64,000 bases of DNA, taken from Acidimicrobiaceae bacterium (GTDB lineage: Bacteria; Actinomycetota; Acidimicrobiia; Actinomarinales; Actinomarinaceae). Below are positions 10,729 through 42,853 of this stretch, in pieces. Numbering within the stretch: the first letter of the stretch is position 1; every line of letters starts with the position of its first letter. The notes below the pieces were generated by a model, which was given only the letters and a program-made list of their open reading frames with translations, ran no database searches and had not been told where the DNA came from. Location of the stretch: positions 830 through 64,829 of the forward strand of contig JAOMBT010000002.1 of assembly GCA_028344675.1 (NCBI GenBank), in the 5' to 3' direction. Made by a program: the position numbers and the translations under genes.

Positions 10729-11515
10729 TTTCTACAAATGTTTTATATTTAATCATTACATCTTTATCTTTCATGCCAGGTATTCTTGCAGCTTGAAGTA
10801 TTAAATTCTTTTCATAATTGAGTTTTTTTAATTCTTTCAATACATTTGTGATACTTGCATCTCCCTCTCCTAAAGGCACTGTTTTCCCTTGGAATAACCT
10901 ATCTTTAATATGAATATTTTCTATTAAGTCAAAATAATCATCAAATTCATTTTGAAAATTGTAGCCTTCGTAAGCGCTATTTCCAATATCATAATTTATT
11001 TTAAATATGTTTTTGTCGATAGAGTTAAAAAGCATTTTGATATTTTCAGAATTTAGATCAGATTCAATACATATTTTTATATTTTTTGGCACAATTTTTT
11101 GAATTTGTTCAAATATATGTATTTGATTTTTTATTTCAAGATTTTTTAAAGTCATTTTTTCTAGTAATGGTAAAACATAAAGTGAAGTCTTTAATTGTGA
11201 CATTTTCATAAAAACACGCTCCATATGTTCAAGTATTTTCCCAGATAAAATATCAGACCTTTCATGTTGAAGAAAAAAGTCATCTGACACACTTCCAATG
11301 ACTATATTATTTTCATGTAAAATTTTATTTACATAATCATGGTTAAACAAGAATGGATTTGTTTTAATACTTTTTTTATCAAGTACCCATTCAATTATTT
11401 GGAAATTAAGTTTTTTTGCATAAACTAATTCCTCTTCCCAATGTTTGGATGGAAATTCTTGTATTTGCGCATGTAAAGGCTTCACCATCCTTCCTTGCAT
11501 AAAACCAATTTTCAT
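10715..11515 (-). CDS. Hypothetical protein; possibly a TIM-barrel sugar-phosphate isomerase/epimerase
   Basis: 266 aa. The N-terminus MKIGFMQGRM resembles xylose-isomerase-like TIM barrel proteins. Not verified. Sits inside the NeuB/NeuA block. Confidence 0.2.
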   Translation of the reverse strand: MKIGFMQGRMVKPLHAQIQEFPSKHWEEELVYAKKLNFQIIEWVLDKKSIKTNPFLFNHDYVNKILHENNIVIGSVSDDFFLQHERSDILSGKILEHMERVFMKMSQLKTSLYVLPLLEKMTLKNLEIKNQIHIFEQIQKIVPKNIKICIESDLNSENIKMLFNSIDKNIFKINYDIGNSAYEGYNFQNEFDDYFDLIENIHIKDRLFQGKTVPLGEGDASITNVLKELKKLNYEKNLILQAARIPGMKDKDVMIKYKTFVENAIL

Positions 11516-27980: not shown

Positions 27981-29015
27981 GTGAAAGCGTTAATTACAGG
28001 AATAACAGGTCAAGATGGAGCCTACTTGGCCGAACTTTTACTTGAAAAAGATTACGAAGTTCACGGCACTGTAAGACGCTCATCATCCATAAATACAGAG
28101 AGAATAGATGGTTTAATTTCTAAATATTCTAATGATCATCAACTGAATCTTCACTATTCAGATCTTCTAGATTCCTCTTCAATAACCAACCTACTTAATA
28201 ATATTGTTCCAGATGAGGTATACAATTTAGCTGCCCAATCGCATGTTTCGGTGTCATTTTCGAACCCAATATTCACAACCCAAATCGGTACTCTTGGATC
28301 TATTTCAATACTTGAGGGTATTAGGCACCTTGATAAAGATGTAAAATTTTATCAAGCTTCCTCATCTGAAATGTTCGGAGGGACTAGTAAAGAAAGCTTA
28401 AATGAAAAATCTTTGTTTGATGCTAAAAGCCCCTACGGAGCTTCAAAAGTTTTTGCTCATGAAATTACAAAAATATACAGGGAATCTTATGACTTGTTCG
28501 GAGTAAATGGAATTCTATTTAATCATGAATCACCACTAAGGGGTGAAACCTTTGTCACTAGAAAAATTAGTAAAGCTGTAGGGAGAATATCTGTAGGAGT
28601 TCAAGAAAGATTGACTTTAGGAAATCTTGATGCAAGTAGAGACTGGGGATATGCCAAAGATTATGTTGAAGGTATGTGGAGAATGATGCAACATACAACT
28701 GCAGAAGACTGGGTTCTAGCCACAGGGATAACAAAAACAGTTAAAGAATTTGCTGAAGCAGCTTTTAATTTTGTTGGTTTAAATTGGGAGGATTATGTAG
28801 ATGTTTCTGAAAAATACTTTAGACCAAACGAGGTTGAGTATTTGATGGGTGATGCAACAAAAGCCAAGAAAATACTTGGGTGGAAACCTACAGTTGATTT
28901 TAAAGAACTCGTAAAGGTTATGGTTGAACATGATATTATAGAAGCCAAAAAAGATTTAGCTTTATTAAAGGACAATTTAATATTTCCAACCTGGGAACAT
29001 CCAAAAGAACTGTAA
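27981..29015 (+). CDS. gmd: GDP-mannose 4,6-dehydratase
   Basis: [45 protein letters not shown] is near-identical in pattern to E. coli Gmd ([41 protein letters not shown]). Catalytic SSSEMFG...YGASK. Confidence 0.9.
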   Translation: [344 protein letters not shown]

Positions 29016-29018
29016 CTC

Positions 29019-29942
29019 ATGAAAGTATTATTAGTTGGTTCCGAAGGCTTTCTTGGAGGATGGGTAAAAAAATTATTACTCAAAGATAATGAACATGAAT
29101 TAGTTGAAATCCGTGGAAAAAACGACTTAGATATAACAAATATAGAGAAACTTGATAAATTTTTCATAAATCACAAACCACAAGCAGTTATAAACTGTGC
29201 TGCTTTTGTTGGAGGTATCTCCTATGGCTACAAATTTCCGGCAAAAATGCTGTATGAAAATTCAAAAATGGCTTTAAATCTTTATCAAATTTCTAATTCG
29301 AACAAAGTTTCAGTACTAGTAAACCCAATTTCAAACTGCGCCTACCCAGGACATTTAAATACATATAAAGAAGATAATTTCTTTGACGGGCCTCCACATG
29401 AATCAGTTTATAACTACGCAATGTCAAAAAGAATGTGTGTAGATTTAGGTAACAGTTTTTTCAACGAATATAACTTTACTTCTGCAAATGTCATATTGTC
29501 GAACATGTATGGTCCCGAAGATCATTTTGATATTGAGCGATCTCATGCATTAGGTGCCCTAGTTAAAAAAATATCTGATGCAAAAATGAATAATGAAAGC
29601 AGTGTAGAAATTTGGGGTACAGGAAATCCAATAAGAGAATGGTTATATGTTCATGATGGTGCAAGAGCTTTGCTGAAATCTTTAAACCTAAAGAGCGGCC
29701 ACTATTTTTTTAACATTGGAGTAAAAAAAGGAATATCAATTATTGATTTAGCAAATATTATTAAAGAAAAGGTTGGGTGGAAAGGAAAATTTTCATTCAA
29801 TTTGGATAAACCTGATGGAGTTCTCGAAAAAAAAGTTGATGGTATAAAGGGTTCTCAACTTTTAGAATGGGAACCAGAGTTTGAATTAGAATACGGAATA
29901 GAAAAAACTATAAATTGGTATAAAGAAACACATGGAAGATAA
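29019..29942 (+). CDS. fcl: GDP-L-fucose synthase (GDP-4-keto-6-deoxymannose 3,5-epimerase/4-reductase)
   Basis: NCAAFVGGISYGYKFPAKMLYEN...SNMYGPEDHF...IWGTGNPIREWLYVHDGA parallels E. coli Fcl AAKVGGIVANNTYPADFIYQN...NLYGPHDNF...VWGSGTPMREFLHVDD. Immediately downstream of gmd. Confidence 0.75.
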   Translation: MKVLLVGSEGFLGGWVKKLLLKDNEHELVEIRGKNDLDITNIEKLDKFFINHKPQAVINCAAFVGGISYGYKFPAKMLYENSKMALNLYQISNSNKVSVLVNPISNCAYPGHLNTYKEDNFFDGPPHESVYNYAMSKRMCVDLGNSFFNEYNFTSANVILSNMYGPEDHFDIERSHALGALVKKISDAKMNNESSVEIWGTGNPIREWLYVHDGARALLKSLNLKSGHYFFNIGVKKGISIIDLANIIKEKVGWKGKFSFNLDKPDGVLEKKVDGIKGSQLLEWEPEFELEYGIEKTINWYKETHGR

Positions 29943-30357
29943 AAATATAAAACATATCACCCTAAATGGTGAAATATATGCTTCAATTTTTGACATAAGA
30001 AATATTCCAGAAGGTCTCGATTTTTTAACTAATGACAAATCTTTCATTCAAGTAGGCACTTGGAATTACAAAAAAGATAAGATTTTAGATGCGCATTTTC
30101 ATAATTACTTTGAAAGAAGCTCATACAGAACACAAGAAGTTGTATATGTCTTACAAGGAAAGATTAAATGTAATCTATACGAAGAGGATACGTCTTATAT
30201 TGATTCTGCAATTGTAGAAGCAGGAATGATGATTGTTCAATATCAAGGGGTTCACGAATATGAAATGATAGAAGATTCAAAAGTTTTAGAAGTTAAAAAT
30301 GGACCTTATCATGGACCAGACAAAGATCGAACACGAGTAAATGTTAGAAAAAATTAA
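29932..30357 (+). CDS. Cupin-fold sugar 3,4-ketoisomerase (FdtA/WxcM-like)
   Basis: 141 aa. ...DAHFHNYFERSSYRTQEVVYVLQGKIKCNLYEED carries the HxH pair (cf. FdtA RGxHAH) and the beta-rich layout of WxcM-like isomerases. Overlaps fcl by 11 nt. Confidence 0.5.
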   Translation: MEDKNIKHITLNGEIYASIFDIRNIPEGLDFLTNDKSFIQVGTWNYKKDKILDAHFHNYFERSSYRTQEVVYVLQGKIKCNLYEEDTSYIDSAIVEAGMMIVQYQGVHEYEMIEDSKVLEVKNGPYHGPDKDRTRVNVRKN

Positions 30358-31429
30358 TCAAGTAGAACCAAATATTTCTGGAGACGACATTCAGAGAGTG
30401 AATGATTATATGTCTAGTGGTGCATGGATAACTGAGCATGCACTAACTAAAGAATTAGAAGAGAAGATAGCCGATTTTGTTGGTCGAAAATATGCAGTTG
30501 CAGTACCTAATGGCACCATTGCTATCTACTTGTCATTGCTTGCTGCGGGACTTACTGAAGGTAAGCGAGTTGCAGTTCCGAATATAACTATGATTGCAAC
30601 AATTAATGCAATACTTTGGGCAGGAGCTGAGCCAGTAATAATAGATCTTAATGAGCGCTTATGTATGTCTCTCAAGTCATTACAAACAGTGGACAAGCTT
30701 GATGGAGTTATATATGTACCATTAAATGGTAGAACAGAAGACGGTATAGCAATAGAAAACTATTGTAATGATAAAAATATTATCTTAATCGAAGATTCTG
30801 CTCACTCTCTTGGTTCACGGTATCAAGATAAGATGTGTGGTTCACTCGGAAGTATAAGTGTATTTTCATTTACACCTCATAAAATAATCACAATGGGCCA
30901 AGGGGGTCTAGTCTTAACTGATGATGATAGTCTTTATGAGTATCTTTTAGATTTAAAAACGTTTAATAGATCAAAAGATAGAAGTGACTGGCATGACGGA
31001 TTTGGACTTAATTTTAAAATAACCGATTTACAATCTGCGCTGGGTCTTTCACAATTTGAAAAAATTAATGAATTTGTAAAAGTAAAAAGAGAAATGTTTC
31101 AAATTTATAAAAGTAGTATTGAAAATTATAATTTTATTAATTTTTTTGAATACGAAACTCCTTGGTTTGTAGATTTAATTTGCAAATCAGAAACAGAAAG
31201 AAATGATTTAAAACTTTCTCTTGAAGATAATAATATTTTAACCAGAGAATCCTATCCAGCTTTAAGTAAGCAAAGTTTTTTACAGAGTGTTGAGAAAACG
31301 AATCTAGAATTTTCTGAAAATGTTTCTGATAACATCCTCTGGTTACCGTCTTCTACTAATTTAACAAAAGATCAAATAAATGAAATCGTTGATCAAATTT
31401 CAACTTTATGGACAACAAAGTATTTATAA
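30341..31429 (+). CDS. DegT/DnrJ/EryC1/StrS-family PLP-dependent sugar aminotransferase
   Basis: VPNGTIAIYLSLLAAGLTEGKRVAVPNITMIATINAILWAGAEPVIID and SFTPHKIITMGQGGLVLTDD (the PLP-lysine region SFxxxKxxxxGEGG). Confidence 0.8.
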   Translation: MLEKINQVEPNISGDDIQRVNDYMSSGAWITEHALTKELEEKIADFVGRKYAVAVPNGTIAIYLSLLAAGLTEGKRVAVPNITMIATINAILWAGAEPVIIDLNERLCMSLKSLQTVDKLDGVIYVPLNGRTEDGIAIENYCNDKNIILIEDSAHSLGSRYQDKMCGSLGSISVFSFTPHKIITMGQGGLVLTDDDSLYEYLLDLKTFNRSKDRSDWHDGFGLNFKITDLQSALGLSQFEKINEFVKVKREMFQIYKSSIENYNFINFFEYETPWFVDLICKSETERNDLKLSLEDNNILTRESYPALSKQSFLQSVEKTNLEFSENVSDNILWLPSSTNLTKDQINEIVDQISTLWTTKYL

Positions 31430-31433
31430 AATA

Positions 31434-32114
31434 ATGAAAACACAAGACACTGAATTACATGATGTTTCCTTAATTATTGCAACATACAATGAAGAGGAAT
31501 CCCTTGGTTATGTTCTTGATGAAATAAAAGACTTTAACATAGGAGAAATTATTATTATCGACAAAAATTCAACAGATAATACTAAACATATTGCAGAAAA
31601 ATACGATGTAAAATTTATCACTCAGTCACAAGAAGGTTGGGGAGGTGCTGTTAAAGAAGCCATAGGCCTGTCTTCTAAAGAATATATAACATATATGGAT
31701 GGAGATGGTTCATACAATCCAAAAGCTTTACATGAAATGAAAAGTCTTATAAAAGACCAAGATGCGGTTTTTTGTTCAAGATATAAAGATGGTGCAAAGA
31801 GTCCTGATGATACATTTATTAGAGCAATTGGAAATAAACTTTTTACAAATTTTGTTAGATTTAGATTTGGTTGTGAAATTACAGATTCTCTTTTCTTTTA
31901 CCCGATGTTTAATAGAGATATTTTAAAAAAAGTTAATCTTCAATCTGACGACTTCACACTGTGTTTGGAACTTCCTGTAAAAGTTCATCAAAATAAATTG
32001 AAATATACTGAAATTCTCAGCGAAGAAAGAGAAAGATATGCTGGTAAAACAAAAGTCAATGCTTTAATTGACGGTTCTAAAATACTGAAAGGAATCTTTT
32101 CAATAACAAGATAG
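31434..32114 (+). CDS. GT2 glycosyltransferase (DPM1-like, soluble)
   Basis: VSLIIATYNEEESLGYVLDEIKDF...IIIIDKNSTDNT...YMDGDGSYNP (DxD and DGDGS motifs). The start is taken at the internal MKTQ (track ORF 31380..32114) to avoid overlapping the aminotransferase. Confidence 0.65.
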   Translation: MKTQDTELHDVSLIIATYNEEESLGYVLDEIKDFNIGEIIIIDKNSTDNTKHIAEKYDVKFITQSQEGWGGAVKEAIGLSSKEYITYMDGDGSYNPKALHEMKSLIKDQDAVFCSRYKDGAKSPDDTFIRAIGNKLFTNFVRFRFGCEITDSLFFYPMFNRDILKKVNLQSDDFTLCLELPVKVHQNKLKYTEILSEERERYAGKTKVNALIDGSKILKGIFSITR

Positions 32115-32115
32115 T

Positions 32116-32658
32116 ATGAAATTACATTTAGGTTGCGGTAAAAGGTATATAGAAGGCTTTACACATATTGATGTAGTCAAATACGATCATATAGATTTTG
32201 AAATACCGGTTGATAAGTTAGATATATTTTCCAACAACTCTATAGATGAAATTTACGCATCTCATGTTATTGAGTACTTTGATAGAGATAAAGTAAAGAA
32301 TGTACTGGAAGAATGGTATAGGGTACTAAAACCAGGAGGACTTTTAAGGCTTGCAGTTCCTAATTTTAATTCATTGATTAAAGTCTATGAAAAATCAAAT
32401 GATTTGAATAAAATACTTGGACCTCTATACGGTAAGTGGGATATTGGTGATGAGAGTATTTATCATAGAACTGTTTATGACAAACAAAGCTTAACGGATG
32501 TACTGCTAGAAGCTAAATTTTATAATGTTATAGAGTGGGACTGGTCAATAGTTTTCAAAGATTTAGTTAATTATGATGATCATTCTCAGGCATATTTTCC
32601 ACATATGGATAAATCAAATGGGATACATATTAGTTTGAATTTGGAATGTACTAAGTGA
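32116..32658 (+). CDS. Class I SAM-dependent methyltransferase (Methyltransf_11-like)
   Basis: MKLHLGCGKRYIEGFTHIDV...VIEYFDRDKVKNVLEEWYRVLKPGGLLRL matches motifs I and post-II/III of type 11 methyltransferases. Confidence 0.7.
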   Translation: MKLHLGCGKRYIEGFTHIDVVKYDHIDFEIPVDKLDIFSNNSIDEIYASHVIEYFDRDKVKNVLEEWYRVLKPGGLLRLAVPNFNSLIKVYEKSNDLNKILGPLYGKWDIGDESIYHRTVYDKQSLTDVLLEAKFYNVIEWDWSIVFKDLVNYDDHSQAYFPHMDKSNGIHISLNLECTK

Positions 32659-33860
32659 AGTCGAAACAAGATAAGAAACATTTTTATCTTGTTTCAATAA
32701 TACATCTAATAATTTTTGTTCCTTTTGTTATACAAAAAACAATTGGTCCAGATTGGGATTCATACGCATTAATTGGGACTATTACAAACTTGTACAAAGA
32801 TTCTCTGTACTTGCCTTCTAGGCCGCCAGGTTTTCCTGTTTATGAATTTTTCTTAACAGGTCTTTACTCAATTTCAAATATTATAAATATAGAATTTGAA
32901 GTCGTTTTTATTTTAAGTCAGTATCTATTTGTTCTTGCTAACAACTATTTGATTTATAAATTTTTCCTAAAATTAGATTATAAAAATTATTTACTTTATT
33001 ACGTAGCCGTTTTATCACCTATATATTTAATTAGCGGCTTATCTATTATTGATTATCATGCAGGTTTATTGTTTGGGTTCTTAGGAATATTTTTAGCGCT
33101 CTACAAACCTCATTCAATATATTTTGTTTCTGTATTCTTAGCTATCTCTTCTGGTATTAGATTATCTAATCTTTTATTTTTTATTGTTGTTGTAGGTATA
33201 TTGCTTGGAAATAAAATTGAATTTAGAAGAATTGCTTACTTTTCCGCTGTCACTTTATTTTTATCTTTAGTAATTTACATTCCAGGATATATAAATTTAT
33301 GGGATTCATCTCTTTCAGGCAAGTTAACAAATTATTTTGATATCGTATGTGTTTTGAACTTGACCAACATAGACCATTCACTACTTGATCGTTTAGGAAG
33401 GTTTGTTTTGAAACAGTTAGATTTTTTAGGCATTGTAGGTTCTATTATTGTACTAATCTGCCTAACTAAGATTCGAAAAGAGAATATATACAATAATTAT
33501 TATTTCTTTATGATTTTTATTCTTTTTCAAATAAGTTTTTTAAGACTACCCACTGAAGAGGGCCATTTATTACCAGCTTTTATAGCATTCATTTTTATAT
33601 TAAATTCTTTGAAAATTAAAAATATGTTCTTAATGATTATTCTCATCTCTACATTATTAAGCAACTTCCTATTTATAAGCATTTATGATGTAGATACCCC
33701 AGATCAAGCTACTGAAATCTATTTTAATTTTGAATTAGAGCAAGGCCTACTTTTTAAAGACTTTGAAGCTAGAGAAAATATAGGTAAAGATAAAAAATAT
33801 CATTATGAAAATTCTTATTACTCAATTAAAGATGTTTGGAAAGACGGGTGTCCTAATTAA
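32655..33860 (+). CDS. Polytopic membrane protein, candidate GT-C-like glycosyltransferase
   Basis: 401 aa with ~11 helices. First-loop motif GPDWDSYALIGTITNLYK (DxDxYxxI). Confidence 0.3.
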   Translation: MKSKQDKKHFYLVSIIHLIIFVPFVIQKTIGPDWDSYALIGTITNLYKDSLYLPSRPPGFPVYEFFLTGLYSISNIINIEFEVVFILSQYLFVLANNYLIYKFFLKLDYKNYLLYYVAVLSPIYLISGLSIIDYHAGLLFGFLGIFLALYKPHSIYFVSVFLAISSGIRLSNLLFFIVVVGILLGNKIEFRRIAYFSAVTLFLSLVIYIPGYINLWDSSLSGKLTNYFDIVCVLNLTNIDHSLLDRLGRFVLKQLDFLGIVGSIIVLICLTKIRKENIYNNYYFFMIFILFQISFLRLPTEEGHLLPAFIAFIFILNSLKIKNMFLMIILISTLLSNFLFISIYDVDTPDQATEIYFNFELEQGLLFKDFEARENIGKDKKYHYENSYYSIKDVWKDGCPN

Positions 33861-33867
33861 TTAAGAA

Positions 33868-34353
33868 TTAGTTTGTATTGAAAAGTATTGAAATAAAATT
33901 TTGTAGAAGTACAAAATTTTTAATCCTTGAAGTTAATTTATATCCACCATCAACTTTTTCTATATATCCTGTGTAGAGCTGCTCTTCAATTCTCTTGTCT
34001 AAAAAAGTATCATTATTTGTAATTTTTTTTATTTCATTTCTTAGTTCATCCTTTGTTATTACGGTATCCACTACTTCTTGCGTAAGATTATTAAGTAAAC
34101 TTACAGATACAGACCTCTCATAACTAACAGGGAATAAAACAAAAAAACCAAAATTCATAGAGAAAACCATAACTATAATCATTAATGTATTGACTGCCTT
34201 TTTTCTTAACAAATAATAATTAAATAATGACGAAATAAGTAACAAATAAATTCCATCGAAGAAATAAATATTTGTAAATTTCAAGAAATCAAATTGAAGT
34301 AAAATGATAAAAAGAACGGTTGTGAAAGTGAATATTTTTATAAAATTTTTCAA
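33868..34353 (-). CDS. Membrane protein (3 TM helices plus a C-terminal soluble segment), unknown function
   Basis: Hydrophobicity only. Translationally coupled to the upstream large membrane protein. Confidence 0.3.
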   Translation of the reverse strand: MKNFIKIFTFTTVLFIILLQFDFLKFTNIYFFDGIYLLLISSLFNYYLLRKKAVNTLMIIVMVFSMNFGFFVLFPVSYERSVSVSLLNNLTQEVVDTVITKDELRNEIKKITNNDTFLDKRIEEQLYTGYIEKVDGGYKLTSRIKNFVLLQNFISILFNTN

Positions 34354-36338
34354 TTGAAAACCTTTACTTTTTTTAGTAATTTTCTAATTTGTTCATCATT
34401 GTAAAGATTATTTAAAGATAAAAAGCAAAGACCTATAATAATGTGTCTTGGATAGAAAAGTTCTGGATCATAAATTAGAAATGGGATAAGATTCAATAAA
34501 CCTAGAATATAGAAATCATTTTTTTGAAAAGTTCTACTCTTGAGTATTGATATTAAAAAATTTAAATTAGATAATAGAAAAATACTGAATCCTATATAAA
34601 TTATTTCTGGTCCAAGCGTCATCAATATTTTCTCATTAAAAGGGTTGATTATTATATAGTTTAAATTTTTTACGAGGTCAAAATCTAAATTTCTACCGTA
34701 GTTCCAACCAGTAGTAATCAATACAAATTCTTTTCCAAAATATAAATTATGAATTAATGGAAGTAAAAGAATTAAAAAGAAAGAAGCCCCTTTCTTAAAA
34801 GTTATATTTTGTCTGTAGAAAAATAATGTGCCTAATGCAAATAAACCAGTTTCTGGCCTAATGAGTACACCAAGTGCAAGAACGAAAACTCCTATTGTTA
34901 TTTTATTTTTTTTCAGCATGTAAATTGATATTAAAAATATCATTAGCGAACTTGCTTCAGACATTCCATATAGAAAAATATTTCTTACATTATCTGAAAT
35001 TAAAAATATTACAAAGAGAAAGGAGATAGGATTAATATTTTTTGAACATAGAAATATAAGGTTTACACACAATGAAAGCATGGCAATCCATACAACATTC
35101 CAAAAATCCCCAAAAATTAAATGAAGTGAGTAAAGAAAATATCTGTAGCCAGGAGAATATAAGAAAACACTTGACCCCCCTCTAAGTCCATCTCCTTCAA
35201 AAATTAGTCTTGCTTGATTTTCATATGTTAAGCTGTCAGATCCTCCAGGTTTAACAATTAAATCAAAAGTATTCCATGGATAGTCAATGATTATGAATGA
35301 AAGGAGTATGAAAATTTGTACGAAATTAAAGTAGGAGAATTTTGAATTGTTGAAATAGAGGTAGATTAAAAGTAAGCATAAGTAAGCGTAAATTTTTATA
35401 AATCTACTCTGGGAAATATCAAAATTGTAAATTAAAGACAAAACAAATGTCAATATAAACAAAAACAAATAATTTCTATTTATATTTCTCGTTATATTTT
35501 TTAAATTAAAAATAACGAATGCACAAATTACTATAAAGGAATAAAAATTAGTACTTACTCTCGAACCCCCGTCTTCTGTTATTACTAATTTGGCAAATTT
35601 TTCATAAGGGTAGCCACTTTTTAATGTTGGTATATGCTTAATTTTCCACTCAAGATAAGAATATTTAATCATTACATGAGTAGCATCTTTTGGTACGTCA
35701 ATAGTAACTGTATTTTCATTCCAATATCTAGTTGGTATCCCGTAGCCAGTTGAGCCATCATTAAATTTTACAGTTACTTCTCCTATGTAATTAATTTCTA
35801 ACTGGGAAGTATTTTTATCTAGCTCTTTGTAAAGTTTCATTTTAAAAGGAAGCCAATCTCGTCTCAGTTCATAAATATTAAATTTTGAGTGATTTAAAAA
35901 ACCTAAAGGAAAATTTGAAGAGTTAGCACCCAGCCATTGATAATTTTCATCAAGAGTTTTAAATTCAATTTTTTCAACTTTGTCGGTAAAAATTGAATTT
36001 AAATTGTTAAAACTTTTCGCACATGTTGAGTCGTAGTATTCATATGTAAAACTATTTTGGACAGGAGTTGAGCTGTCATCTACACAAATTAACCACAAAT
36101 TTGGTGTGCTAACTAAAAAAAATACTTTTACAAAAAATAAAATTGAAAAAAATAGATAACTTATTTTTAAATTTTTTTGTTCTATCTTGTAAATACATAA
36201 AACTAACAATAATAATAATAAAAATGAAGTTTTTGAATTATATGGGATTCCAGATAAATAACCTAAACCCTTGACTGGAAATACAACAATTATTAAAAAT
36301 AATAATTTATAAATCATATTTTTTTTTATAAAACTCAT
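34350..36338 (-). CDS. Large membrane protein: N-terminal ~280 aa extracytoplasmic domain plus a C-terminal polytopic domain related to the 36421/38120 paralogs; candidate GT-C glycosyltransferase
   Basis: 662 aa. The C-terminal half has GGSDSLTYENQARLIFEGDGLRGGSSVFLYSPGYRYF (DxxxYxxxARLI, cf. ArnT DEARYAEIAREM) followed by at least 8 helices. Confidence 0.35.
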   Translation of the reverse strand: MSFIKKNMIYKLLFLIIVVFPVKGLGYLSGIPYNSKTSFLLLLLLVLCIYKIEQKNLKISYLFFSILFFVKVFFLVSTPNLWLICVDDSSTPVQNSFTYEYYDSTCAKSFNNLNSIFTDKVEKIEFKTLDENYQWLGANSSNFPLGFLNHSKFNIYELRRDWLPFKMKLYKELDKNTSQLEINYIGEVTVKFNDGSTGYGIPTRYWNENTVTIDVPKDATHVMIKYSYLEWKIKHIPTLKSGYPYEKFAKLVITEDGGSRVSTNFYSFIVICAFVIFNLKNITRNINRNYLFLFILTFVLSLIYNFDISQSRFIKIYAYLCLLLIYLYFNNSKFSYFNFVQIFILLSFIIIDYPWNTFDLIVKPGGSDSLTYENQARLIFEGDGLRGGSSVFLYSPGYRYFLYSLHLIFGDFWNVVWIAMLSLCVNLIFLCSKNINPISFLFVIFLISDNVRNIFLYGMSEASSLMIFLISIYMLKKNKITIGVFVLALGVLIRPETGLFALGTLFFYRQNITFKKGASFFLILLLPLIHNLYFGKEFVLITTGWNYGRNLDFDLVKNLNYIIINPFNEKILMTLGPEIIYIGFSIFLLSNLNFLISILKSRTFQKNDFYILGLLNLIPFLIYDPELFYPRHIIIGLCFLSLNNLYNDEQIRKLLKKVKVFN

Positions 36339-36420
36339 TGAGTTAAAGCTATCCTTTATGTTGAAGTCATATTATATAAATTTATAGTAATGCAAATAAA
36401 AAAATTTTTGAGGAAAGTAC

Positions 36421-38097
36421 GTGGTAATAAATAAATTTAAAGTTTTTTCAATTTTTTATTTTTTTTCTTCATTAATTTTTACTTTTAGTATTGGTGAAAT
36501 TTTTTATAACTCAATTGATGGAACTGATTTCTATCGTTATTTTCGATATATTGAATATTTTAAGGGGTCGATAGAAACTACGTCTAGAGAACAAGGTTTA
36601 TTTTATTTTTGGTTTATATCATTATTTATTGACTTCTACGATCAGTATTATATTGCCGATAAATGGGAGTTTATATACAGCTCTGCTATTCAGATGGGAA
36701 ATTTTATTTTATATTTAATTGGATTATTAGGTTTATTTATTTTTCTAAAAACCAAAAAGATAAATACGACAAAAATTTTTATTTCCCTATCCTTTTTAAA
36801 CTTTTTCCCACCTGTATTTGGTGCGAGGTTAATAATGAAACCTGAGATGCTTGCATTTGCAATATTTCCCTGGATTTTGATAGGTTTAGATAAATACTTT
36901 TTAAACAAAGAAATTTCACACCTTCTGAGTGTTGTCCCACTATTGGCAATTATTGCAACAAGTAAAGGAACAGTTTTTATTTTAATAGCTTCATCACTTC
37001 TATTTATTTACTTCAACAAGATTAGAAAACTGAAATTTTTCGATATTGGAATTGCCATTACAATTTTTACAATAATGTCATACTTTCTATATCAAGAAAA
37101 TCTAAATGCTAATTCTGTAAGCATGCTTTCTCATCCAGAACTAGAGTCATATCGATATAAAGCAAGCTTTTCATTTATTTATACCCTCAGTATTAGCGAT
37201 TTATTTTTAAAACCTTTTAGGAATGTTCACGCAGGGTCTCTTTTTGGAATTACCTTTATAGATTTATTCGGGGATTACTTTAATCGGTATTGGGATCATG
37301 AAAGAAGTTTATTTATTTCTAATAGAAGAGAGGTGGTTTCATTTTTAGATTATCCAAGACGAAACATCTCAGTAATTTTTTCAATTGTATTTTTTATATC
37401 AACTTTCATAAAAGGAAAATCATTTAAGCACTCTCCATACACTAAAGTCTATTTAGTTGGTATAGCAATACTTTTATTAACATCACTTGGGGTATTTGGT
37501 CTTCACTTTAATCCAAACAAAGGAGATACAGTAAAAACACATTACTACTTCTTTTTACTAGCTTTTTCATTCATATTTATAGTTATAAAATTTTTGAATG
37601 AAACAAAACAAAAAACACATGTAATTTTTCTTATTTTTATCTTCCTAGCTTTTTCATTTATAGTTGGCTTTCCTAAAAACTATGAAGCTGATTTTAACGA
37701 GACACTGAGTGAAAAAATTTCTACAACATTAAGTTGTCGTTTCGTCAGTTCTTATTTTGAGAATATTAAAGATCTTGATATTAAGTGCTTAACAAAACAG
37801 CTTGCTACTTGTGGCTCATTCAATCAATACAATAAACCAATTGAACACGAGGATGGGTACCTAATATTTCAGGCAGATGAATTTTTTCAAAACGTTAATT
37901 TACAAGACACTGATGGAAATACGGTAACAGTTACAGGATATGCAGAATGTTTACATTATCTTGAAGGAGGGTATTTCAAAAATCAATCAGTTGATTATGT
38001 GGATAGGACACCTCCGGTCAATAGATTATTTTTGTATTTAGCCATGCTTAGTATTTTTTACATACTTTATAACAGTAGAAATAGTTTCAAAAAATAA
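36421..38097 (+). CDS. Polytopic membrane protein, paralog A (candidate GT-C-fold glycosyltransferase)
   Basis: Shares four motif blocks with 38120..39445. They are DGTDFYRYFRYIEYFKG...TSREQGLFYFW, LNFFPPVFGARLIMKPEMLAF, FGITFIDLFGDYFNRYWDHERSLF and NPNKGDTVKTHYY. There are also ~150 aa of extra C-terminal extracytoplasmic sequence. Confidence 0.4.
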   Translation: MVINKFKVFSIFYFFSSLIFTFSIGEIFYNSIDGTDFYRYFRYIEYFKGSIETTSREQGLFYFWFISLFIDFYDQYYIADKWEFIYSSAIQMGNFILYLIGLLGLFIFLKTKKINTTKIFISLSFLNFFPPVFGARLIMKPEMLAFAIFPWILIGLDKYFLNKEISHLLSVVPLLAIIATSKGTVFILIASSLLFIYFNKIRKLKFFDIGIAITIFTIMSYFLYQENLNANSVSMLSHPELESYRYKASFSFIYTLSISDLFLKPFRNVHAGSLFGITFIDLFGDYFNRYWDHERSLFISNRREVVSFLDYPRRNISVIFSIVFFISTFIKGKSFKHSPYTKVYLVGIAILLLTSLGVFGLHFNPNKGDTVKTHYYFFLLAFSFIFIVIKFLNETKQKTHVIFLIFIFLAFSFIVGFPKNYEADFNETLSEKISTTLSCRFVSSYFENIKDLDIKCLTKQLATCGSFNQYNKPIEHEDGYLIFQADEFFQNVNLQDTDGNTVTVTGYAECLHYLEGGYFKNQSVDYVDRTPPVNRLFLYLAMLSIFYILYNSRNSFKK

Positions 38098-38119
38098 AAT
38101 ATTTTAAGTATTTTCAAAT

Positions 38120-39445
38120 CTAAATTAATAAATTATAAAAGTATGATAATTGGCTAAATACTGCAGTTTTTAAATCAATATTAAATGACCATGGAAACCC
38201 AAAGATAAATATAATAATCAAAAAGTAAAGTGCAAACACTGAGTAATTAAAAACAGGCTTTCTCTTTTGAATTAATTCAATCAGTATAAAAATAAATGAC
38301 AAGGCTAATAAATGTGAATAATAATGAGTTTTAAGGGTATCTCCCTTATCAGGGTTAAAATATGTTCCAAAAAACCCATATGCCGTTAATAATATTAAAA
38401 ATATTCCAAGAAAATATGATCTTGAATATAATTTAAACTTCTTACCTTTGCTTGCAAACAATGAAAGAATAATAAATGTTAAAGAAACTAATATAGATAC
38501 ATATCTACGAACCAAATTTAAATCATAATTACTTGATTCGATACGATTTTTAAAAAAAAGACTTCGACCATGGTCCCAGTATCTTTCAAAATAGTCTCCA
38601 AATAAATCTATCAACGTTATTCCAAAAAATGAATTTCTCATATTATCTCTAAATGGGTTATTAATTAATTGATTTAGATCAAAGTTATAAATTAAACTAA
38701 AGGTAGCTTTATAGTTGTATTGTTCTACTAGTTCATGATATAAAAAGCCCACGTTATTTATTTTGTAGTCATTATAAAAAATTAATAAACATAAAACTAA
38801 AGAAGGAATAATAAAATAAATTAGGTGCATTACATCAAATTCTTTAATTTTAGGAAGAAATTTTAATATTAGAAGTAAGCTTAAAGAAGCTGTAATAAAG
38901 GCTTTGGCTGTAAAACTTAATAAAATTAATGGAATTAGATAGATAAGTTTAAGAAGTTTCTTTGATTCCAGATAAGTTTCTAAAAAGTAAATAATCCAAG
39001 GAAGAAGTGAAAAAGCCAATATTTCTGGTTTCATTATTAACCTTGCTCCAAATATTGGTGGAAAAAAGTTTAAAAAAGCTAAAACCATATAGATATCTTC
39101 ACTTTGAAACTTATAAAACCTTAGTAGCTTAAAAAAACCGAATGCTCCAAACAAATAATAAATTGTATTTGAAATTTGAATTGATATATTAATTAGCGAT
39201 TGAAAGTCAGGTAAATTAGATAATACTGATCCTATCTCTGCAACTTTATATACTGTCCAAAAATAAAAAACCCCTTGTTCTCTGGAAGTATATTCAGCAT
39301 TACCCAAAAAATATTCAATATATCTGTAGTACCTATTAAAGTCCGTCCCATTAGTAGAGTCATAAAATGTCAAACCTAAAATTATTGAAAATAATAAAGA
39401 AGAGCTAAAAATAAATTGTGAAACTCGAGTTCGGTTTTTTTTCAT
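38120..39445 (-). CDS. Polytopic membrane protein, paralog B (candidate GT-C-fold glycosyltransferase)
   Basis: Has NGTDFNRYYRYIEYFLG...TSREQGVFYFW, LNFFPPIFGARLIMKPEILAF, FGITLIDLFGDYFERYWDHGRSLF and NPDKGDTLKTHYY. Convergent with paralog A. Confidence 0.4.
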   Translation of the reverse strand: MKKNRTRVSQFIFSSSLLFSIILGLTFYDSTNGTDFNRYYRYIEYFLGNAEYTSREQGVFYFWTVYKVAEIGSVLSNLPDFQSLINISIQISNTIYYLFGAFGFFKLLRFYKFQSEDIYMVLAFLNFFPPIFGARLIMKPEILAFSLLPWIIYFLETYLESKKLLKLIYLIPLILLSFTAKAFITASLSLLLILKFLPKIKEFDVMHLIYFIIPSLVLCLLIFYNDYKINNVGFLYHELVEQYNYKATFSLIYNFDLNQLINNPFRDNMRNSFFGITLIDLFGDYFERYWDHGRSLFFKNRIESSNYDLNLVRRYVSILVSLTFIILSLFASKGKKFKLYSRSYFLGIFLILLTAYGFFGTYFNPDKGDTLKTHYYSHLLALSFIFILIELIQKRKPVFNYSVFALYFLIIIFIFGFPWSFNIDLKTAVFSQLSYFYNLLI

Positions 39446-40260
39446 ATTATTACAATCTATATGTGATATTAATTACTAAATTAAAGATATTCATCGCAAA
39501 ATATTTGTTAATTTTCATAAGTTTTTTTAAAAATATAGACATCAATGAATTCACCCGTAAGGGGATAAAGTGGCACACTCCTCTTAATGATATCGTAGGT
39601 TTAAGTCTGTATCTTTTAGGAAGTTTTGAAAAGCATAATGTTAAAAAAGTAAGTAAGTACATAAACAATGGGACAACTGTAATCGATATTGGAGCAAATA
39701 TTGGCACATTTACCATTGGTCTTTTAAAAAGATGCCCAGAAAAGATTGAAAAAATAATTTCCTATGAACCTGAAAAAAAGAACTATAAGAATCTCAAGAA
39801 AAATATAAAAGAGAACAACCTGGAGTCAAAATCAGAAGCCTTCAACAAGTTTGTAGGGCTTGGCAACGTAGATAAAATAACAAGCAACTATCCTCTCATA
39901 CATAAAGGACCTAAGGTTCAAAATATTTACTATGGGCTAAAGGGAGACTATAAAGGTGTTCAATCTAGTAATTTGGATGAGATTAATTTCGATGCAAATA
40001 AAAATTATTTTATAAAAATAGATGTTGACGGATACGAAGCTGAAGTCATGTCAGTAATAAATAAAAAGTTAAAGTTTCGACCGACTATTTTAATTGAAGT
40101 TAATAAAGTATTGTTGGATGAAATAGAAGTAGAATATTTAGTAGAAGTGTTTGAAAAAAATAATTACAAATTTGTTTATTTTGGTAAACAACTTTCACCA
40201 AAAATTATATTAAATGATTTTCGAAAAATTGGATTAGATTTGATAGCAGTTCCTGTTTAA
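39418..40260 (+). CDS. FkbM-family methyltransferase
   Basis: VIDIGANIGTFTIGLLKRC (the DxGAN.G SAM motif) and NYFIKIDVDGYEAEVM (the IKIDVEG motif). Confidence 0.75.
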   Translation: MKLEFGFFSYYYNLYVILITKLKIFIAKYLLIFISFFKNIDINEFTRKGIKWHTPLNDIVGLSLYLLGSFEKHNVKKVSKYINNGTTVIDIGANIGTFTIGLLKRCPEKIEKIISYEPEKKNYKNLKKNIKENNLESKSEAFNKFVGLGNVDKITSNYPLIHKGPKVQNIYYGLKGDYKGVQSSNLDEINFDANKNYFIKIDVDGYEAEVMSVINKKLKFRPTILIEVNKVLLDEIEVEYLVEVFEKNNYKFVYFGKQLSPKIILNDFRKIGLDLIAVPV

Positions 40261-40311
40261 AAATTTAATAATTGTTTACGTATATATAACATGATTAATA
40301 TGGAAGTTATT

Positions 40312-42387
40312 ATGAAAGTTTTTAGATATATATTATTTATTTTCATTGTTTCATGTGGCAATAATAATGAAAGTGGACTAACAGTTGTCTCCACTTCATT
40401 ACCACCTGCAATTGACACACCCTCTACTTCATTGTCAACTACAACAACTTCAGTAACCACAACCACAGTTGTAACTTATGATGGCTGTATCCCCGAGGAC
40501 AATCAGAGTGTTAATTTTAATGATTTAAAGAATGTTCAAAATTTTCTTAATAGATATGGATTTGATGCTGGAACTGAGGATGGCCTATCAGGCAACCAGA
40601 CTCGAGAGGCTGTTAAAAGATTTCAAGCATACGTTGGCATCACAATAGATGGAGATTTGGGACCAACAACATATGGAAAAATGAATTCATACACTGGTTG
40701 TGAGGAAAGAATAAATGAGTATACTTCCTCTCCTACTTCAACTACTTCAACAACTATTATCAGTGAAGAGAATACAACCGAGTCAACTACTACAACAACT
40801 ACTACAATCCCCGTAACAACTACTACAACAGTGATAGCTACCACCTATGATTATGGATTTCAAGGCATGGTTTCTCCTGAAAGTGGGAACTTCGCTGATA
40901 TTTTAACTACTCAAAATGAAAACAACACCTTTTGTTCAAACATAGCACCGTTGTACGGTGAACAAAATCAACGAACTGATCTCGGTTTCCCTAGTATTTA
41001 TAACCTATACCCATCTCCACCATCTCTAACTTCGGGTGTTTCAACACAGATATCTTCGAATACTTCCTCAACATTCACAGTTGAAGTTAACGGAAATGGG
41101 GATGAAAATTTTAAGTTTTATTTTATTGAACCCTTTACTTCTTCATACAAAACTTTAGATCCAATAAGTATTTCAACCAGTAGTGGACTTACTAAGGCAA
41201 CTTTTAATAAAGATGGCCTGACTCAGGGTTATTGGTTCTACGGATATGCTGATAATGGTTCTGGGGGAATAGTTAAAGCCGATGGTTTACGAGAATTTTT
41301 AGCTGGACCTCCAATAGTTCAAAATGATGTAAATATTAGTTCTTTTGATAATGTTTGGCTTCACACCTCAGAAAATTTGATAAGTAACGGTGAATTTGTT
41401 GCAAATAATTCTGAAATGTATATTACTTATATTATGGATACAGGATTCAATTCATTTTCAACAGTATCTAACGAAATAAATACAACAACAACCTCAATAA
41501 CAGTTGTAAGTGATAGTAGTTATGCAGTTGGTGATATTGTATTACTTGATAACGAATTTATGTTAATTCAAGAGATTTCTAATCAGACTCTTACCGTTGA
41601 AAGAGGATATCGTAACTCTCTACAACAAATTCATGGTATCGGAACCGCTGTGCAGAAATTAATTACAGACACAGATATGAAAGCCGTGAGAGGTTATGCA
41701 CTTTTTAAAGGTGAGAAAGGATATAGTTTTTCAGTTTCACTTGGCAAGGAAGGTGTGCCAAATAAGTTTACAATATCTGACTCCTGTCCAAAAGATTTAT
41801 ATTCACTTGATTTTATAAAAGTTTATTCATGGAGAGAAAAGGGTGAATCAACAGCAAGATCTATTGATGCTGGTAGAGGTGATGTAAATATCGCTAATGA
41901 TAAATTTACTTTATATCAAGGGATTCAGGATTATATATTTCCCGACATATTTGCTTCAGATCCAAGTAATGGTCAGTTTTTAAATCTCGGACCTAGGGAA
42001 GCAACTTACTCTGCAGGAGATACAATTAGCTTTGATTTTGCTGGAATAGTCTCTGGAAGTAATGAAATTAAATATATTGAATTAGAATTCGACATGTTCC
42101 CTACTGGTTCAAAAGCAACAGCTTCAAGAAAAATTATTTTTACTCCAAATAATAATGAATATAAGTACACCTCATCCATCTCTTCAGTATCTTCGACACC
42201 AATATTTACTAACAATGTGTGGGAAAGTGGATATAGGTATGTTTTAAAGCATGTAAAGATAAATGATGGTGTATCTGAATTAATATTTAAAAATAATAGT
42301 GAATTAGAAAATGTAACGCTCGGAACCAAATCAACTCACAGTGTTTATTATCTTGACCAGTTTGCTTTTACAATCAGCAACAATTAA
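40312..42387 (+). CDS. Thr/Ser-rich lipoprotein with a peptidoglycan-binding (PG_binding_1) domain and a large C-terminal domain of unknown function
   Basis: The MKVFRYILFIFIVSCG signal carries a lipobox (IVS-C). LQNFLNRYGFDAGTEDGLSGNQTREAVKRFQAYVGITIDGDLGPTTYGKM is the PG_binding_1 consensus. It is flanked by SSPTSTTSTTII...TTESTTTTTTTIPVTTTTTVIATT linkers. The track start 40291 is probably over-extended. Confidence 0.6.
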   Translation: MKVFRYILFIFIVSCGNNNESGLTVVSTSLPPAIDTPSTSLSTTTTSVTTTTVVTYDGCIPEDNQSVNFNDLKNVQNFLNRYGFDAGTEDGLSGNQTREAVKRFQAYVGITIDGDLGPTTYGKMNSYTGCEERINEYTSSPTSTTSTTIISEENTTESTTTTTTTIPVTTTTTVIATTYDYGFQGMVSPESGNFADILTTQNENNTFCSNIAPLYGEQNQRTDLGFPSIYNLYPSPPSLTSGVSTQISSNTSSTFTVEVNGNGDENFKFYFIEPFTSSYKTLDPISISTSSGLTKATFNKDGLTQGYWFYGYADNGSGGIVKADGLREFLAGPPIVQNDVNISSFDNVWLHTSENLISNGEFVANNSEMYITYIMDTGFNSFSTVSNEINTTTTSITVVSDSSYAVGDIVLLDNEFMLIQEISNQTLTVERGYRNSLQQIHGIGTAVQKLITDTDMKAVRGYALFKGEKGYSFSVSLGKEGVPNKFTISDSCPKDLYSLDFIKVYSWREKGESTARSIDAGRGDVNIANDKFTLYQGIQDYIFPDIFASDPSNGQFLNLGPREATYSAGDTISFDFAGIVSGSNEIKYIELEFDMFPTGSKATASRKIIFTPNNNEYKYTSSISSVSSTPIFTNNVWESGYRYVLKHVKINDGVSELIFKNNSELENVTLGTKSTHSVYYLDQFAFTISNN

Positions 42388-42447
42388 AAGTTATCAGAGA
42401 GAATCTAAACTTTTAAATAATTTGTACGTTTTATGTGCGTTTGAGCT

Positions 42448-42623
42448 TTATGGCCCTCCAGGTAATGACTCACAAGGCTCACCGTCATTATCTCCATCTA
42501 GATTTGCAACATCTCCATAGTATGGAAAATAAGTATCGAACCAATTTTTAGCTTCTGAATAGTTAGCAAAGTCTCCACAATTTTTTGTATCTCCAATAGA
42601 AAGAATGACTTTAATGTTAGATA
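42448..42623 (-). pseudogene. Excalibur (extracellular calcium-binding) domain fragment without a canonical start
   Basis: The minus-strand translation ...SIGDTKNCGDFANYSEAKNWFDTYFPYYGDVANLDGDNDGEPCESLPGGP* contains the Excalibur DxDxDGxxCE motif and the CxDF start. The frame opens right after a TAA and has no ATG/GTG/TTG. Confidence 0.35.
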
Positions 42624-42779
42624 ATTATGGAGTAGATATGGTTTATCACGACATCATATCAATATTAATTTTTTCAACTGTCATCTATTTAGTTTATAGG
42701 CTTTACAAAAGGTTTTAATTTTTCTACAAAATGTGGGCTTGAGTGGTTTTTTGTAGGGTATATTTCTGAAAAACCCTTG

Positions 42780-42853
42780 TGGGCGCTACAGGATTTGAAC
42801 CTGTGACTTCTTCCTTGTAAGGGAAGCGCTCTGCCGGACTGAGCTAAGCGCCC
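42780..42853 (-). tRNA. tRNA-Val (anticodon TAC)
   Basis: The reverse complement is GGGCGCT-TA-GCTC-AGTCCGGC-AGAGC-G-CTTCC-CTTACAA-GGAAG-AAGTC-ACAGG-TTCAAAT-CCTGT-AGCGCCC-A. No CCA (followed by CAA). Confidence 0.85.

Follow-up and report, generated by a model that had tools for sequence, protein, structure and literature searches.

A lineage-restricted lipoprotein with a peptidoglycan-binding domain in the conserved core of flexible island fGI1 of Candidatus Actinomarinales

The lipoprotein gene and the anatomy of its product

The stretch of DNA analyzed here, called the window, comprises 64,000 nucleotides (nt) of contig JAOMBT010000002.1 (assembly GCA_028344675.1, positions 830 to 64,829) from an Acidimicrobiaceae bacterium of the family Actinomarinaceae. 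Within a genomic island with envelope-glycan genes, a lipoprotein with a peptidoglycan-binding domain is encoded on the forward strand at 40291..42387. This open reading frame (ORF), which had been reported in a first-pass annotation of the window, is present as described and encodes 698 amino acids counted from the first ATG. Its N-terminus, MINMEVIMKVFRYILFIFIVSCGNN, contains a signal peptide and the lipobox IVSC. The true start is probably the ATG at 40312 (M8), giving a product of 691 amino acids, because most homologues begin there and a GGAAG motif lies 5 nt upstream; even so, the two closest relatives also retain the longer N-terminal extension with the pattern MINxEV... Two ORFs on the reverse strand, 40257..40466 (69 amino acids) opposite the first linker of the lipoprotein and 40623..40844 (73 amino acids) opposite the second, are translated into poly-Val and are shadows of the ACN tracts, as annotated before, rather than genes; the former lies inside a gene that is conserved on the forward strand. 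A promoter scan around the lipoprotein gene returned fewer promoter-like sites than shuffled sequence, and a terminator scan of the same region gave nothing convincing.

The signal peptide with its lipobox (MKVFRYILFIFIVSC) is encoded at 40312..40356, with the codon for Cys22 at 40354-40356. In this peptide, MKVFRYILFIFIV, a positively charged n-region (K, R) is followed by nine hydrophobic residues, and the lipobox reads ...FIFIVSC(22)G, of which IVSC fits the pattern [LVI][ASTVI][GAS]C. Most homologues match [FILV][ISVA][SA]C and the lipobox Cys is retained in 180 of 181 full-length members of the family, in agreement with the lipobox that had been proposed for the window protein. Behind the Cys, linker 1 (40357..40485, residues 23-65) is rich in Thr and Ser (47% Ser plus Thr) and predicted to be disordered. 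It leads into the peptidoglycan-binding module (40486..40701, residues 66-137), which lies between the invariant residues Cys66 and Cys137. Here, PG_binding_1 (PF01471) is matched at residues 78-131 (40522-40683) over profile positions 4-57 of 57 with E=6.3e-15 and 55.5 bits against a Pfam cut-off of 23, which bears out the earlier domain assignment. No other domain was found in the Pfam scan of the lipoprotein, and the best NCBIfam and PHROG matches of the peptidoglycan-binding domain are SleB and endolysins. The module is followed by linker 2 (40702..40854, residues 138-188), which is Thr-rich (55% Ser plus Thr, with nine Thr within 12 residues), predicted to be disordered and likewise in line with the first-pass annotation. 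An example of the linker peptides is STTTTTTTIPVTTTTTVIATTYDYGF. Such a Thr-rich tract is unique among the ORFs of the window, where the next best has five Thr in 12 residues and Thr makes up 5.1% overall.

An AlphaFold2 model of the lipoprotein, which was based on an alignment of 30 sequences and has a mean predicted local distance difference test score (pLDDT) of 70.7, shows both linkers as disordered (pLDDT <50 at residues 1-64 and 147-188) and the peptidoglycan-binding module as a three-helix domain with a pLDDT of about 84. The C-terminal ectodomain (40855..42384, residues 189-698) comprises about 510 amino acids rather than the approximately 480 estimated at first. From about residue 250 to 698 it is modelled as an all-β multi-domain array with pLDDT values mostly of 80-95. 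The fold prediction for this region, which had been suggested as a check, resolved it into tandem sandwiches resembling immunoglobulin (Ig) and fibronectin type III (FN3) domains together with a β-barrel module of about 70 amino acids. In Foldseek searches against the PDB, the C-terminal region matched proteins with FN3/Ig domains arranged in strings, among them contactin FN1-FN3 (E about 5e-6), as well as complement MG domains and thick-filament proteins.

The ectodomain ends in a conserved motif, THSVYYLDQF, and the 30-homologue alignment contains invariant polar residues at E422, R438, H448, W514-R515, H683, D689 and Q690. The Cys residues that are invariant in this alignment are Cys22, Cys66, Cys137, Cys215 and Cys499. 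Many invariant polar residues would be consistent with a C-terminal region that is a novel wall-modifying hydrolase, lyase or ligase targeted to peptidoglycan by the peptidoglycan-binding domain. This is further suggested by the fact that PG_binding_1 is usually attached to wall enzymes, by the SleB and endolysin matches and by the label 'peptidoglycan hydrolase-like protein' that JGI gives to members of the family. However, this label derives solely from the peptidoglycan-binding domain, Ig-like sandwiches follow one another in a chain, and no catalytic fold was found in the C-terminal region by the fold searches. An enzymatic function of the ectodomain is thus regarded as very unlikely. In known wall proteins with PG_binding_1, such as the N-terminal domain of SleB, phage endolysins, L,D-transpeptidases and the zinc D-Ala-D-Ala carboxypeptidase, a catalytic module accompanies the domain in the same polypeptide. 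In the Actinomarina protein, in contrast, it is placed between poly-Thr spacers, carries two invariant Cys residues and is combined with a non-catalytic array of β-sandwiches.

The β-barrel module of about 70-80 amino acids is inserted in the ectodomain at 41443..41685 (residues ~385-465). In the lipoprotein it has the motif GD..L.DNE.MLI.....TLTVERGYRNS...H..GT.V., and the general motif of the repeat unit is GD..L.DNE.M.I....TLTV.RGY..T....H..G..V. A profile of the C-terminal region matched residues 940-986 of the minor tail protein of phage Chi (8vjh_A) over lipoprotein residues 411-457 with a whole-sequence E=5.5e-6, and the J-like protein of JBD30 (8rk3_o) is matched weakly by the same module. 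Searched against 1.84 billion cluster representatives, the profile of the C-terminal region recovered 1,384 at E<=0.001, and of the best 150 from outside the family, almost all align with the β-barrel module only. The module is repeated up to 30 times in giant proteins (e.g. P0087, P0090, P0092), the largest of which has 7,472 amino acids and which are probably adhesin-like. No Pfam family covers it, only faint SH3/KOW-like matches being found. The repeat of about 70 amino acids is widespread and unannotated, and it is shared with phage tail tips. A phage origin of the ectodomain was rejected as no relative of the whole ectodomain is encoded on viral contigs of IMG/VR. The likeness to phage tail-tip and host-specificity proteins (Chi 8VJH, JBD30, lambda J-like) is confined to this one β-barrel module. 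In contrast to these proteins, the lipoprotein is encoded by a chromosomal core gene, and its matches among PHROGs are restricted to the peptidoglycan-binding domain.

Conservation of the family and length of the linkers

A search with the C-terminal region yielded 81 homologues with 35-93% identity, nearly all of which have 680-704 amino acids and contain PF01471. Relatives were found in single-cell genomes of OCS155 / Candidatus Actinomarina and in metagenome-assembled genomes (MAGs) of Actinomycetota by scanning one genome per GTDB species. Among the full-length family members (n=181), the peptidoglycan-binding module has exactly 72 amino acids in all 181 and the C-terminal region has 507-514 amino acids in 180, with one of 521. 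The three N-terminal Cys residues (Cys22, Cys66 and Cys137) are invariant in the family, save for the one member without the lipobox Cys. Database names of the family, for example 'hypothetical protein' and 'peptidoglycan hydrolase-like protein with peptidoglycan-binding domain', are uninformative, as are the source names of the proteins that contain the β-barrel repeat. The full-length region occurs in only about eight clusters at 50% identity in the profile search, and the family is therefore lineage-restricted. Two further loci lie on short contigs that are assigned to a 'Crocinitomicaceae' MAG (L004, JAYPLD010000134.1) and a 'Flammeovirgaceae' MAG (L008, JAYNOQ010000111.1) and have an Actinomarina gene neighbourhood. 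Their neighbouring genes are 44-92% identical to genes of the window, with 92% for the core mpaB-like gene, and both contigs are probably mis-binned.

The DNA of the linkers had been described as near-perfect codon repeats from which a phase-variable surface protein might result. In such a scenario, slipped-strand mispairing in the ACN tracts would switch expression or vary it strongly. Short tandems are indeed present, the longest exact ones being 2 x 12 nt (40784-40807) and 2 x 9 nt (40733-40750), both in linker 2. The description as near-perfect repeats did not hold, however: the Thr codons are mixed (ACT 16, ACA 14, ACC 5) in about the proportions found in the rest of the gene, runs of a trinucleotide in the linkers never exceed two units, and the scores assigned by Tandem Repeats Finder to the linker repeats are only 34-48. 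Close relatives differ within the linkers either by gain or loss of one to three Thr or by whole units of eight amino acids, such as VPQTTTTT with 2-4 copies (P0042/P0044/P0045) and VPATTTTT with two versus three copies (P0058/P0062/P0357). When the DNA of the window was aligned with its two closest relatives, the only indels were of 3, 9 and 12 nt, all inside Thr/Ser tracts, and the one of 9 nt maps to the 9-nt tandem (40733-40755). Slippage or unequal recombination thus occurs in the linkers.

All repeat units and observed indels are, however, multiples of three (3, 9, 12 or 24 nt) inside the coding linkers, so that none of them shifts the reading frame. Across the family, linker 1 has 38-49 amino acids (23 in one N-terminally truncated entry) and linker 2 has 29-52, with a mode of 45-49, which keeps the lengths within about 10-20 amino acids over the entire order. 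Full-length members of most clusters at 90% identity (n=9 clusters) differ by 0-5 amino acids. Clusters 1, 6 and 8 span 12-20 amino acids, partly through different N-termini, and short family entries look like fragments from short contigs. This comparison, which had been proposed in the first-pass annotation, gave no sign of switching; the pattern is what low-complexity linkers ordinarily show, namely drift in length that stays in frame. On/off phase variation was rejected on the repeat statistics and on the narrow, in-frame length variation in the 181 homologues, and a phase-variable surface protein is hardly credible. Length changes are always in-frame and stay within a narrow band kept over the order, and the linkers behave as a spacer under length selection, not as a contingency locus.

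At the 5' end of the gene, two unrelated alleles of the signal peptide and linker 1 (GNNNES... versus SSQEEQIADLPVD...) occur in one cluster at 90% identity with the same C-terminal body. They correspond to window positions 40312-40485 and are represented by P0256, P0260, P0264, P0267 and P0268 on the one hand and P0001, P0255 and P0258 on the other. This suggests that the flexible island has a recombination breakpoint within the 5'-terminal part of the lipoprotein gene.

Poly-Thr segments are also found in other exported proteins of Actinomarinales and relatives, namely a trypsin-like lipoprotein in which 16 Thr follow one another (L006, 13374-15182, reverse strand), a 454-amino acid lipoprotein of unknown kind (L003, 15812-17176, forward strand) and a DUF3152 protein (L003, 7739-8671, reverse strand). 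As these proteins are unrelated, the linker style seems to be lineage-wide rather than a mark of this locus.

The surrounding island and its conserved core

The flexible island fGI1 has been described as the only one conserved throughout Ca. Actinomarinales, where, as the 'glycotype' island of the cell envelope, it is dedicated to decoration with sugars (Lopez-Perez et al. 2020, PMC7771536). Its five tRNAs act as insertion hot spots (PMC7771536). The island in the window matches this description of fGI1: it contains tRNAs for Phe, Asp, Lys, Arg and Val, low-GC DNA and envelope-glycan genes, including glycosyltransferase and nucleotide-sugar genes, and is syntenic with Actinomarina single-cell genomes. 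All five fGI1 tRNAs are present between 20430 and 42853, and partial tRNA direct repeats of at least 16 nt, the published signature of recent cassette insertion, were not found in the window. The GC content is 0.26-0.29 up to about 40.2 kb and 0.32-0.36 thereafter. This step falls at the lipoprotein gene, with 0.285 for 27981-40260, 0.339 for the gene itself and 0.347 downstream.

Upstream of the gene, the island encodes a GDP-mannose 4,6-dehydratase, a reductase resembling GDP-fucose synthase, a WbuC-like cupin, a DegT aminotransferase, an AglJ-like GT2, methyltransferases and four polytopic membrane proteins. Downstream, the gene is followed by the island-boundary tRNA-Val(TAC) at 42779..42853 on the reverse strand, a flavoprotein resembling UDP-galactopyranose mutase, a ribonucleotide reductase and genes of fatty-acid synthesis. 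A tRNA-Val lies downstream of the lipoprotein gene also in L001 and L006. The 390-nt spacer between the stop codon and the tRNA (42388-42778) contains a possible hydrophobic mini-ORF of 26 codons, MVYHDIISILIFSTVIYLVYRLYKRF, at about 42638-42718. A gene for 55 amino acids is called at the equivalent place in L009, and in L001 and similar relatives three extra genes are inserted in this spacer. A comparison of the spacer with Rfam revealed no family at the gathering threshold.

The 558-amino acid protein encoded at 36421..38097 (forward strand) is a conserved neighbour for which a confident AlphaFold2 model was obtained (pLDDT 82.4, predicted template modelling score 0.87). According to this model the protein has the fold of a GT-C glycosyltransferase. 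In the ranked structural comparison, the values were 18.7 for ALG12, 15.8 for ArnT, 15.1 for Pmt4, 14.5 for GPI-MT-I and 14.4 for AftD, followed between 13.3 and 9.6 by ALG9, STT3B, AglB, ALG3, Pmt2, AftA, AftB, Pmt1, PglB and further GT-C-fold matches, and finally by PimE (9.5), DPY19 (7.6) and EmbA (7.4), a ranking that does not distinguish between a protein, a lipid-linked glycan and a wall polymer as acceptor. Among 23 aligned members of this family, five show weak PMT_2 matches (best 1.8e-5). D33, G34, T35 and D36 just after the first transmembrane segment are invariant, as are E45 and E57. At residues ~420-530, the protein has an extracytoplasmic domain at its C-terminus, in which C439, C456, C464 and C510 are invariant and the motifs GYAECLHY and DGYLIFQ are conserved. 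This domain may be the part that recognizes the acceptor. It is missing from the 441-amino acid paralogue encoded at 38120..39445 on the reverse strand, which shares 44% identity with the 558-amino acid protein (E=7e-95) and is assigned to GT-C by this paralogy. The paralogue and a methyltransferase of the FkbM family (39418..40260, forward strand; PF05050, E=2.7e-12) form a two-gene cassette (38120-40260) between the 558-amino acid GT-C gene and the lipoprotein gene. Since it is present in L012 and absent from L001, L002, L009 and L011, the conserved core itself harbours this small cassette as a flexible element.

The most widely conserved neighbour is a 401-amino acid polytopic membrane protein (32655..33860, forward strand). 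Its homologue adjoins the lipoprotein gene in L006, L008 and L010 and is encoded nearby in L007, L009, L011 and L012. A 662-amino acid membrane protein (34350..36338, reverse strand) has homologues in L001, L002, L007 and L009 and similar-sized genes in L010 and L012. For the four neighbouring membrane proteins, including the 401-amino acid protein, no match was obtained in Pfam, NCBIfam or PDB sequences, save for a weak match of the 662-amino acid protein to NF046093, 'cell surface glycopolymer formation' (E=5.9e-5, below the cut-off). The multiple GT-C-like neighbours of the first-pass annotation are thus partly supported, by the predicted fold of the 558-amino acid protein and by its 441-amino acid paralogue, while the 401- and 662-amino acid proteins are without a detectable family. 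The 'DPM1-like' GT2 (31380..32114, forward strand; PF00535, E=2e-25) resembles polyprenyl-phosphate-hexose synthases. Its best NCBIfam matches are AglJ (5.3e-36) and a dolichyl-phosphate hexose transferase, both below the cut-offs (124.5 bits against 325).

In every locus recovered, the position of the lipoprotein gene within the island is maintained. In L012 (78% identity), the gene order is identical to that of the window, including the cassette of the 441-amino acid protein and FkbM. In L011 (93%), genes for a methyltransferase, the 401- and 558-amino acid proteins and the lipoprotein stand in a row without the 662-, 161- and 441-amino acid and FkbM genes. In L001, L002 and L009 (57-75%), the 558-amino acid gene immediately precedes the lipoprotein gene in the same orientation, with gaps of 8-47 nt, or of 8-123 nt when L011 is included. 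Order and orientation differ in L010 and L007, where the genes are convergent or separated. In L010 (47%), the lipoprotein gene directly follows a 399-amino acid homologue and is succeeded by genes for membrane proteins of 658 and 564 amino acids, a UbiA prenyltransferase and a GT2. In L006 and L007 (distant Actinomarina, 35%), it comes after an mpaB-like gene, GT4, tRNA-Arg, GT1 and the 401-amino acid membrane protein. The fixed set therefore consists of the lipoprotein and the 401-, 558- and 662-amino acid membrane proteins, around which variable cassettes are swapped. The lipoprotein gene is an order-wide core gene of Ca. Actinomarinales and not island cargo. Its placement at the edge of the island in the earlier annotation is right as to position, but not in the sense of cargo.

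The window shares with the published fGI1 the five tRNAs, the low GC content and the glycosyltransferase and nucleotide-sugar genes. The conserved core of lipoprotein and GT-C genes differs in being apparently undescribed in that study, where text searches gave zero occurrences each of the words 'lipoprotein' and 'peptidoglycan' (PMC7771536). The island as such has thus been published, and its conserved core appears to be newly pointed out here.

The proximity of lipoprotein and glycosyltransferase genes allows the lipoprotein to be seen as a dedicated glycoprotein scaffold and specific acceptor of the neighbouring machinery. In this case, the GT2 would make a polyprenyl-phosphate sugar, and the GT-C enzymes would transfer it together with strain-specific island sugars to the Thr linkers, resulting in a hypervariable glycan coat. 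The linkers are disordered and Thr-rich with a composition conserved across the order, and with its signal peptide and a Ser plus Thr content of 47-55% in the linkers the protein has the features of a Sec/Tat-exported acceptor for O-mannosylation by Pmt/Ppm1. In several genera, a GT-C gene, whose product has a fold confirmed by a model, immediately precedes the lipoprotein gene in the same orientation, the best match of the GT2 is AglJ / dolichyl-phosphate hexose transferases, and the weak PMT_2 matches in five of 23 family members as well as a size of ~558 amino acids, near the approximately 550 of bacterial Pmt (PMC12757957), point in the same direction. O-mannosylation of actinobacterial lipoproteins also has a precedent: lipoproteins account for about a third of the Pmt-dependent O-mannosylated glycoproteins of Streptomyces (PMC6593405), and in Cellulomonas mannose is located on inter-domain linkers (PMC12757957). 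Like the O-mannosylated actinobacterial lipoproteins, among them S. coelicolor PstS, the L,D-transpeptidase SCO4934 and mycobacterial lipoglycoproteins, the Actinomarina protein is predicted to be exported and wall-associated and has Ser/Thr-rich disordered segments by the anchor or between domains, with a GT2 resembling polyprenyl-phosphate-sugar synthases and GT-C enzymes in the genome (PMC6593405, PMC12757957).

On the other hand, the Pmt family PF02366 was not matched by any neighbour even at E<=1, and the GT39 signature (PF02366, PF16192) was not found in the locus, which sets it apart from Pmt/Ppm1 systems. A further difference from known glycoproteins is that PG_binding_1 combined with tandem β-sandwiches is without a characterized counterpart. 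The genes for GDP-mannose 4,6-dehydratase (gmd), the fucose-synthase-like reductase, DegT, the UbiA prenyltransferase of L010 and the UDP-galactopyranose-mutase-like flavoprotein point equally or more to a wall polysaccharide, as which the island was also read by the authors who described fGI1 (PMC7771536). Since poly-Thr linkers are also present in unrelated exported proteins that are encoded elsewhere, they are more readily explained as a general feature or by a general system than by one specific to this locus. The role of a dedicated acceptor is accordingly judged unlikely. Still less probability is given to the extended proposal that fGI1 is partly a protein O-glycosylation island and the lipoprotein its fixed major surface glycoprotein, which would receive strain-specific sugars on its two poly-Thr spacers from the adjacent, divergent GT-C enzymes and, in these abundant bacteria of the ocean, would chiefly determine recognition by phages. 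The general O-glycosylation of Bacteroidetes, which had been named as a parallel, was rejected and is irrelevant here, as the organism is an actinobacterium.

In L010, the UbiA-family prenyltransferase and GT2 genes (10125-11009) lie beside the core of lipoprotein and GT-C genes. They resemble the decaprenyl-phosphate-sugar route of mycobacterial arabinan, and this analogy hints at a wall polysaccharide as the product of the conserved core.

The lipoprotein might also be an extracytoplasmic partner of the GT-C enzymes, an accessory subunit that would hold the growing glycopolymer or position the GT-C transferases relative to peptidoglycan. The order-wide linkage to the 401-, 558- and 662-amino acid proteins and the succession of the 558-amino acid gene and the lipoprotein gene with short gaps on the same strand in several genera are consistent with such a partnership, and β-sandwich and β-barrel modules are typical of carbohydrate-binding accessory domains. 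The deviating order and orientation in L010 and L007, however, and the insertion of a two-gene cassette between the partners without loss of either speak against it, so that an accessory subunit is considered distinctly unlikely.

A possible tether between membrane and cell wall

The reading favoured here, to which a probability of about 0.5 is assigned, is that the lipoprotein tethers membrane and wall and presents an ectodomain that binds or organizes a wall glycopolymer. Starting from the membrane, the Cys, if lipid-modified, would anchor the protein in the cytoplasmic membrane at its outer face. The disordered Thr-rich spacer of about 43 amino acids would come next outwards, followed by the 72-amino acid PG_binding_1 domain, which is expected to dock on peptidoglycan. 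The two Cys residues that bracket this domain, Cys66 and Cys137, probably form a disulfide. The second Thr-rich spacer (~50 amino acids) would then carry the non-enzymatic ectodomain of about 510 amino acids towards or beyond the wall surface, where it may bind or organize a wall-associated glycopolymer made by the GT-C and sugar-nucleotide genes that invariably surround the lipoprotein gene. The spacers themselves would be extended and subject to length drift by in-frame slippage within tight limits, without on/off switching. O-glycosylation of these spacers, by analogy with other actinobacterial exported proteins, is plausible.

Several points weigh against the tether. Co-location of its gene with GT-C genes does not demonstrate a functional link. 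The invariant polar residues of the ectodomain could mark an unrecognized active site instead of a binding surface. Parts of the model at residues 205-227 and 516-536 are of low confidence, and about 30 homologues have an atypical Phe at position -1 of the lipobox. Overall, the family is a lineage-restricted one without a Pfam model and belongs to an ordinary kind of envelope lipoprotein, and the data give no indication of a new mechanism.

The Ca. Actinomarinales, with the tiny marine Ca. Actinomarina, are abundant uncultured bacteria of the surface ocean with an essentially unknown envelope, and the wall structure of low-GC aquatic actinobacteria has been stated as not known (PMC7771536). 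Within the order-wide flexible island, a peptidoglycan-binding lipoprotein and GT-C-type membrane enzymes form a fixed core amid swapped sugar cassettes. This core gives a concrete starting point for testing how the envelope is put together and which structures phages may encounter.

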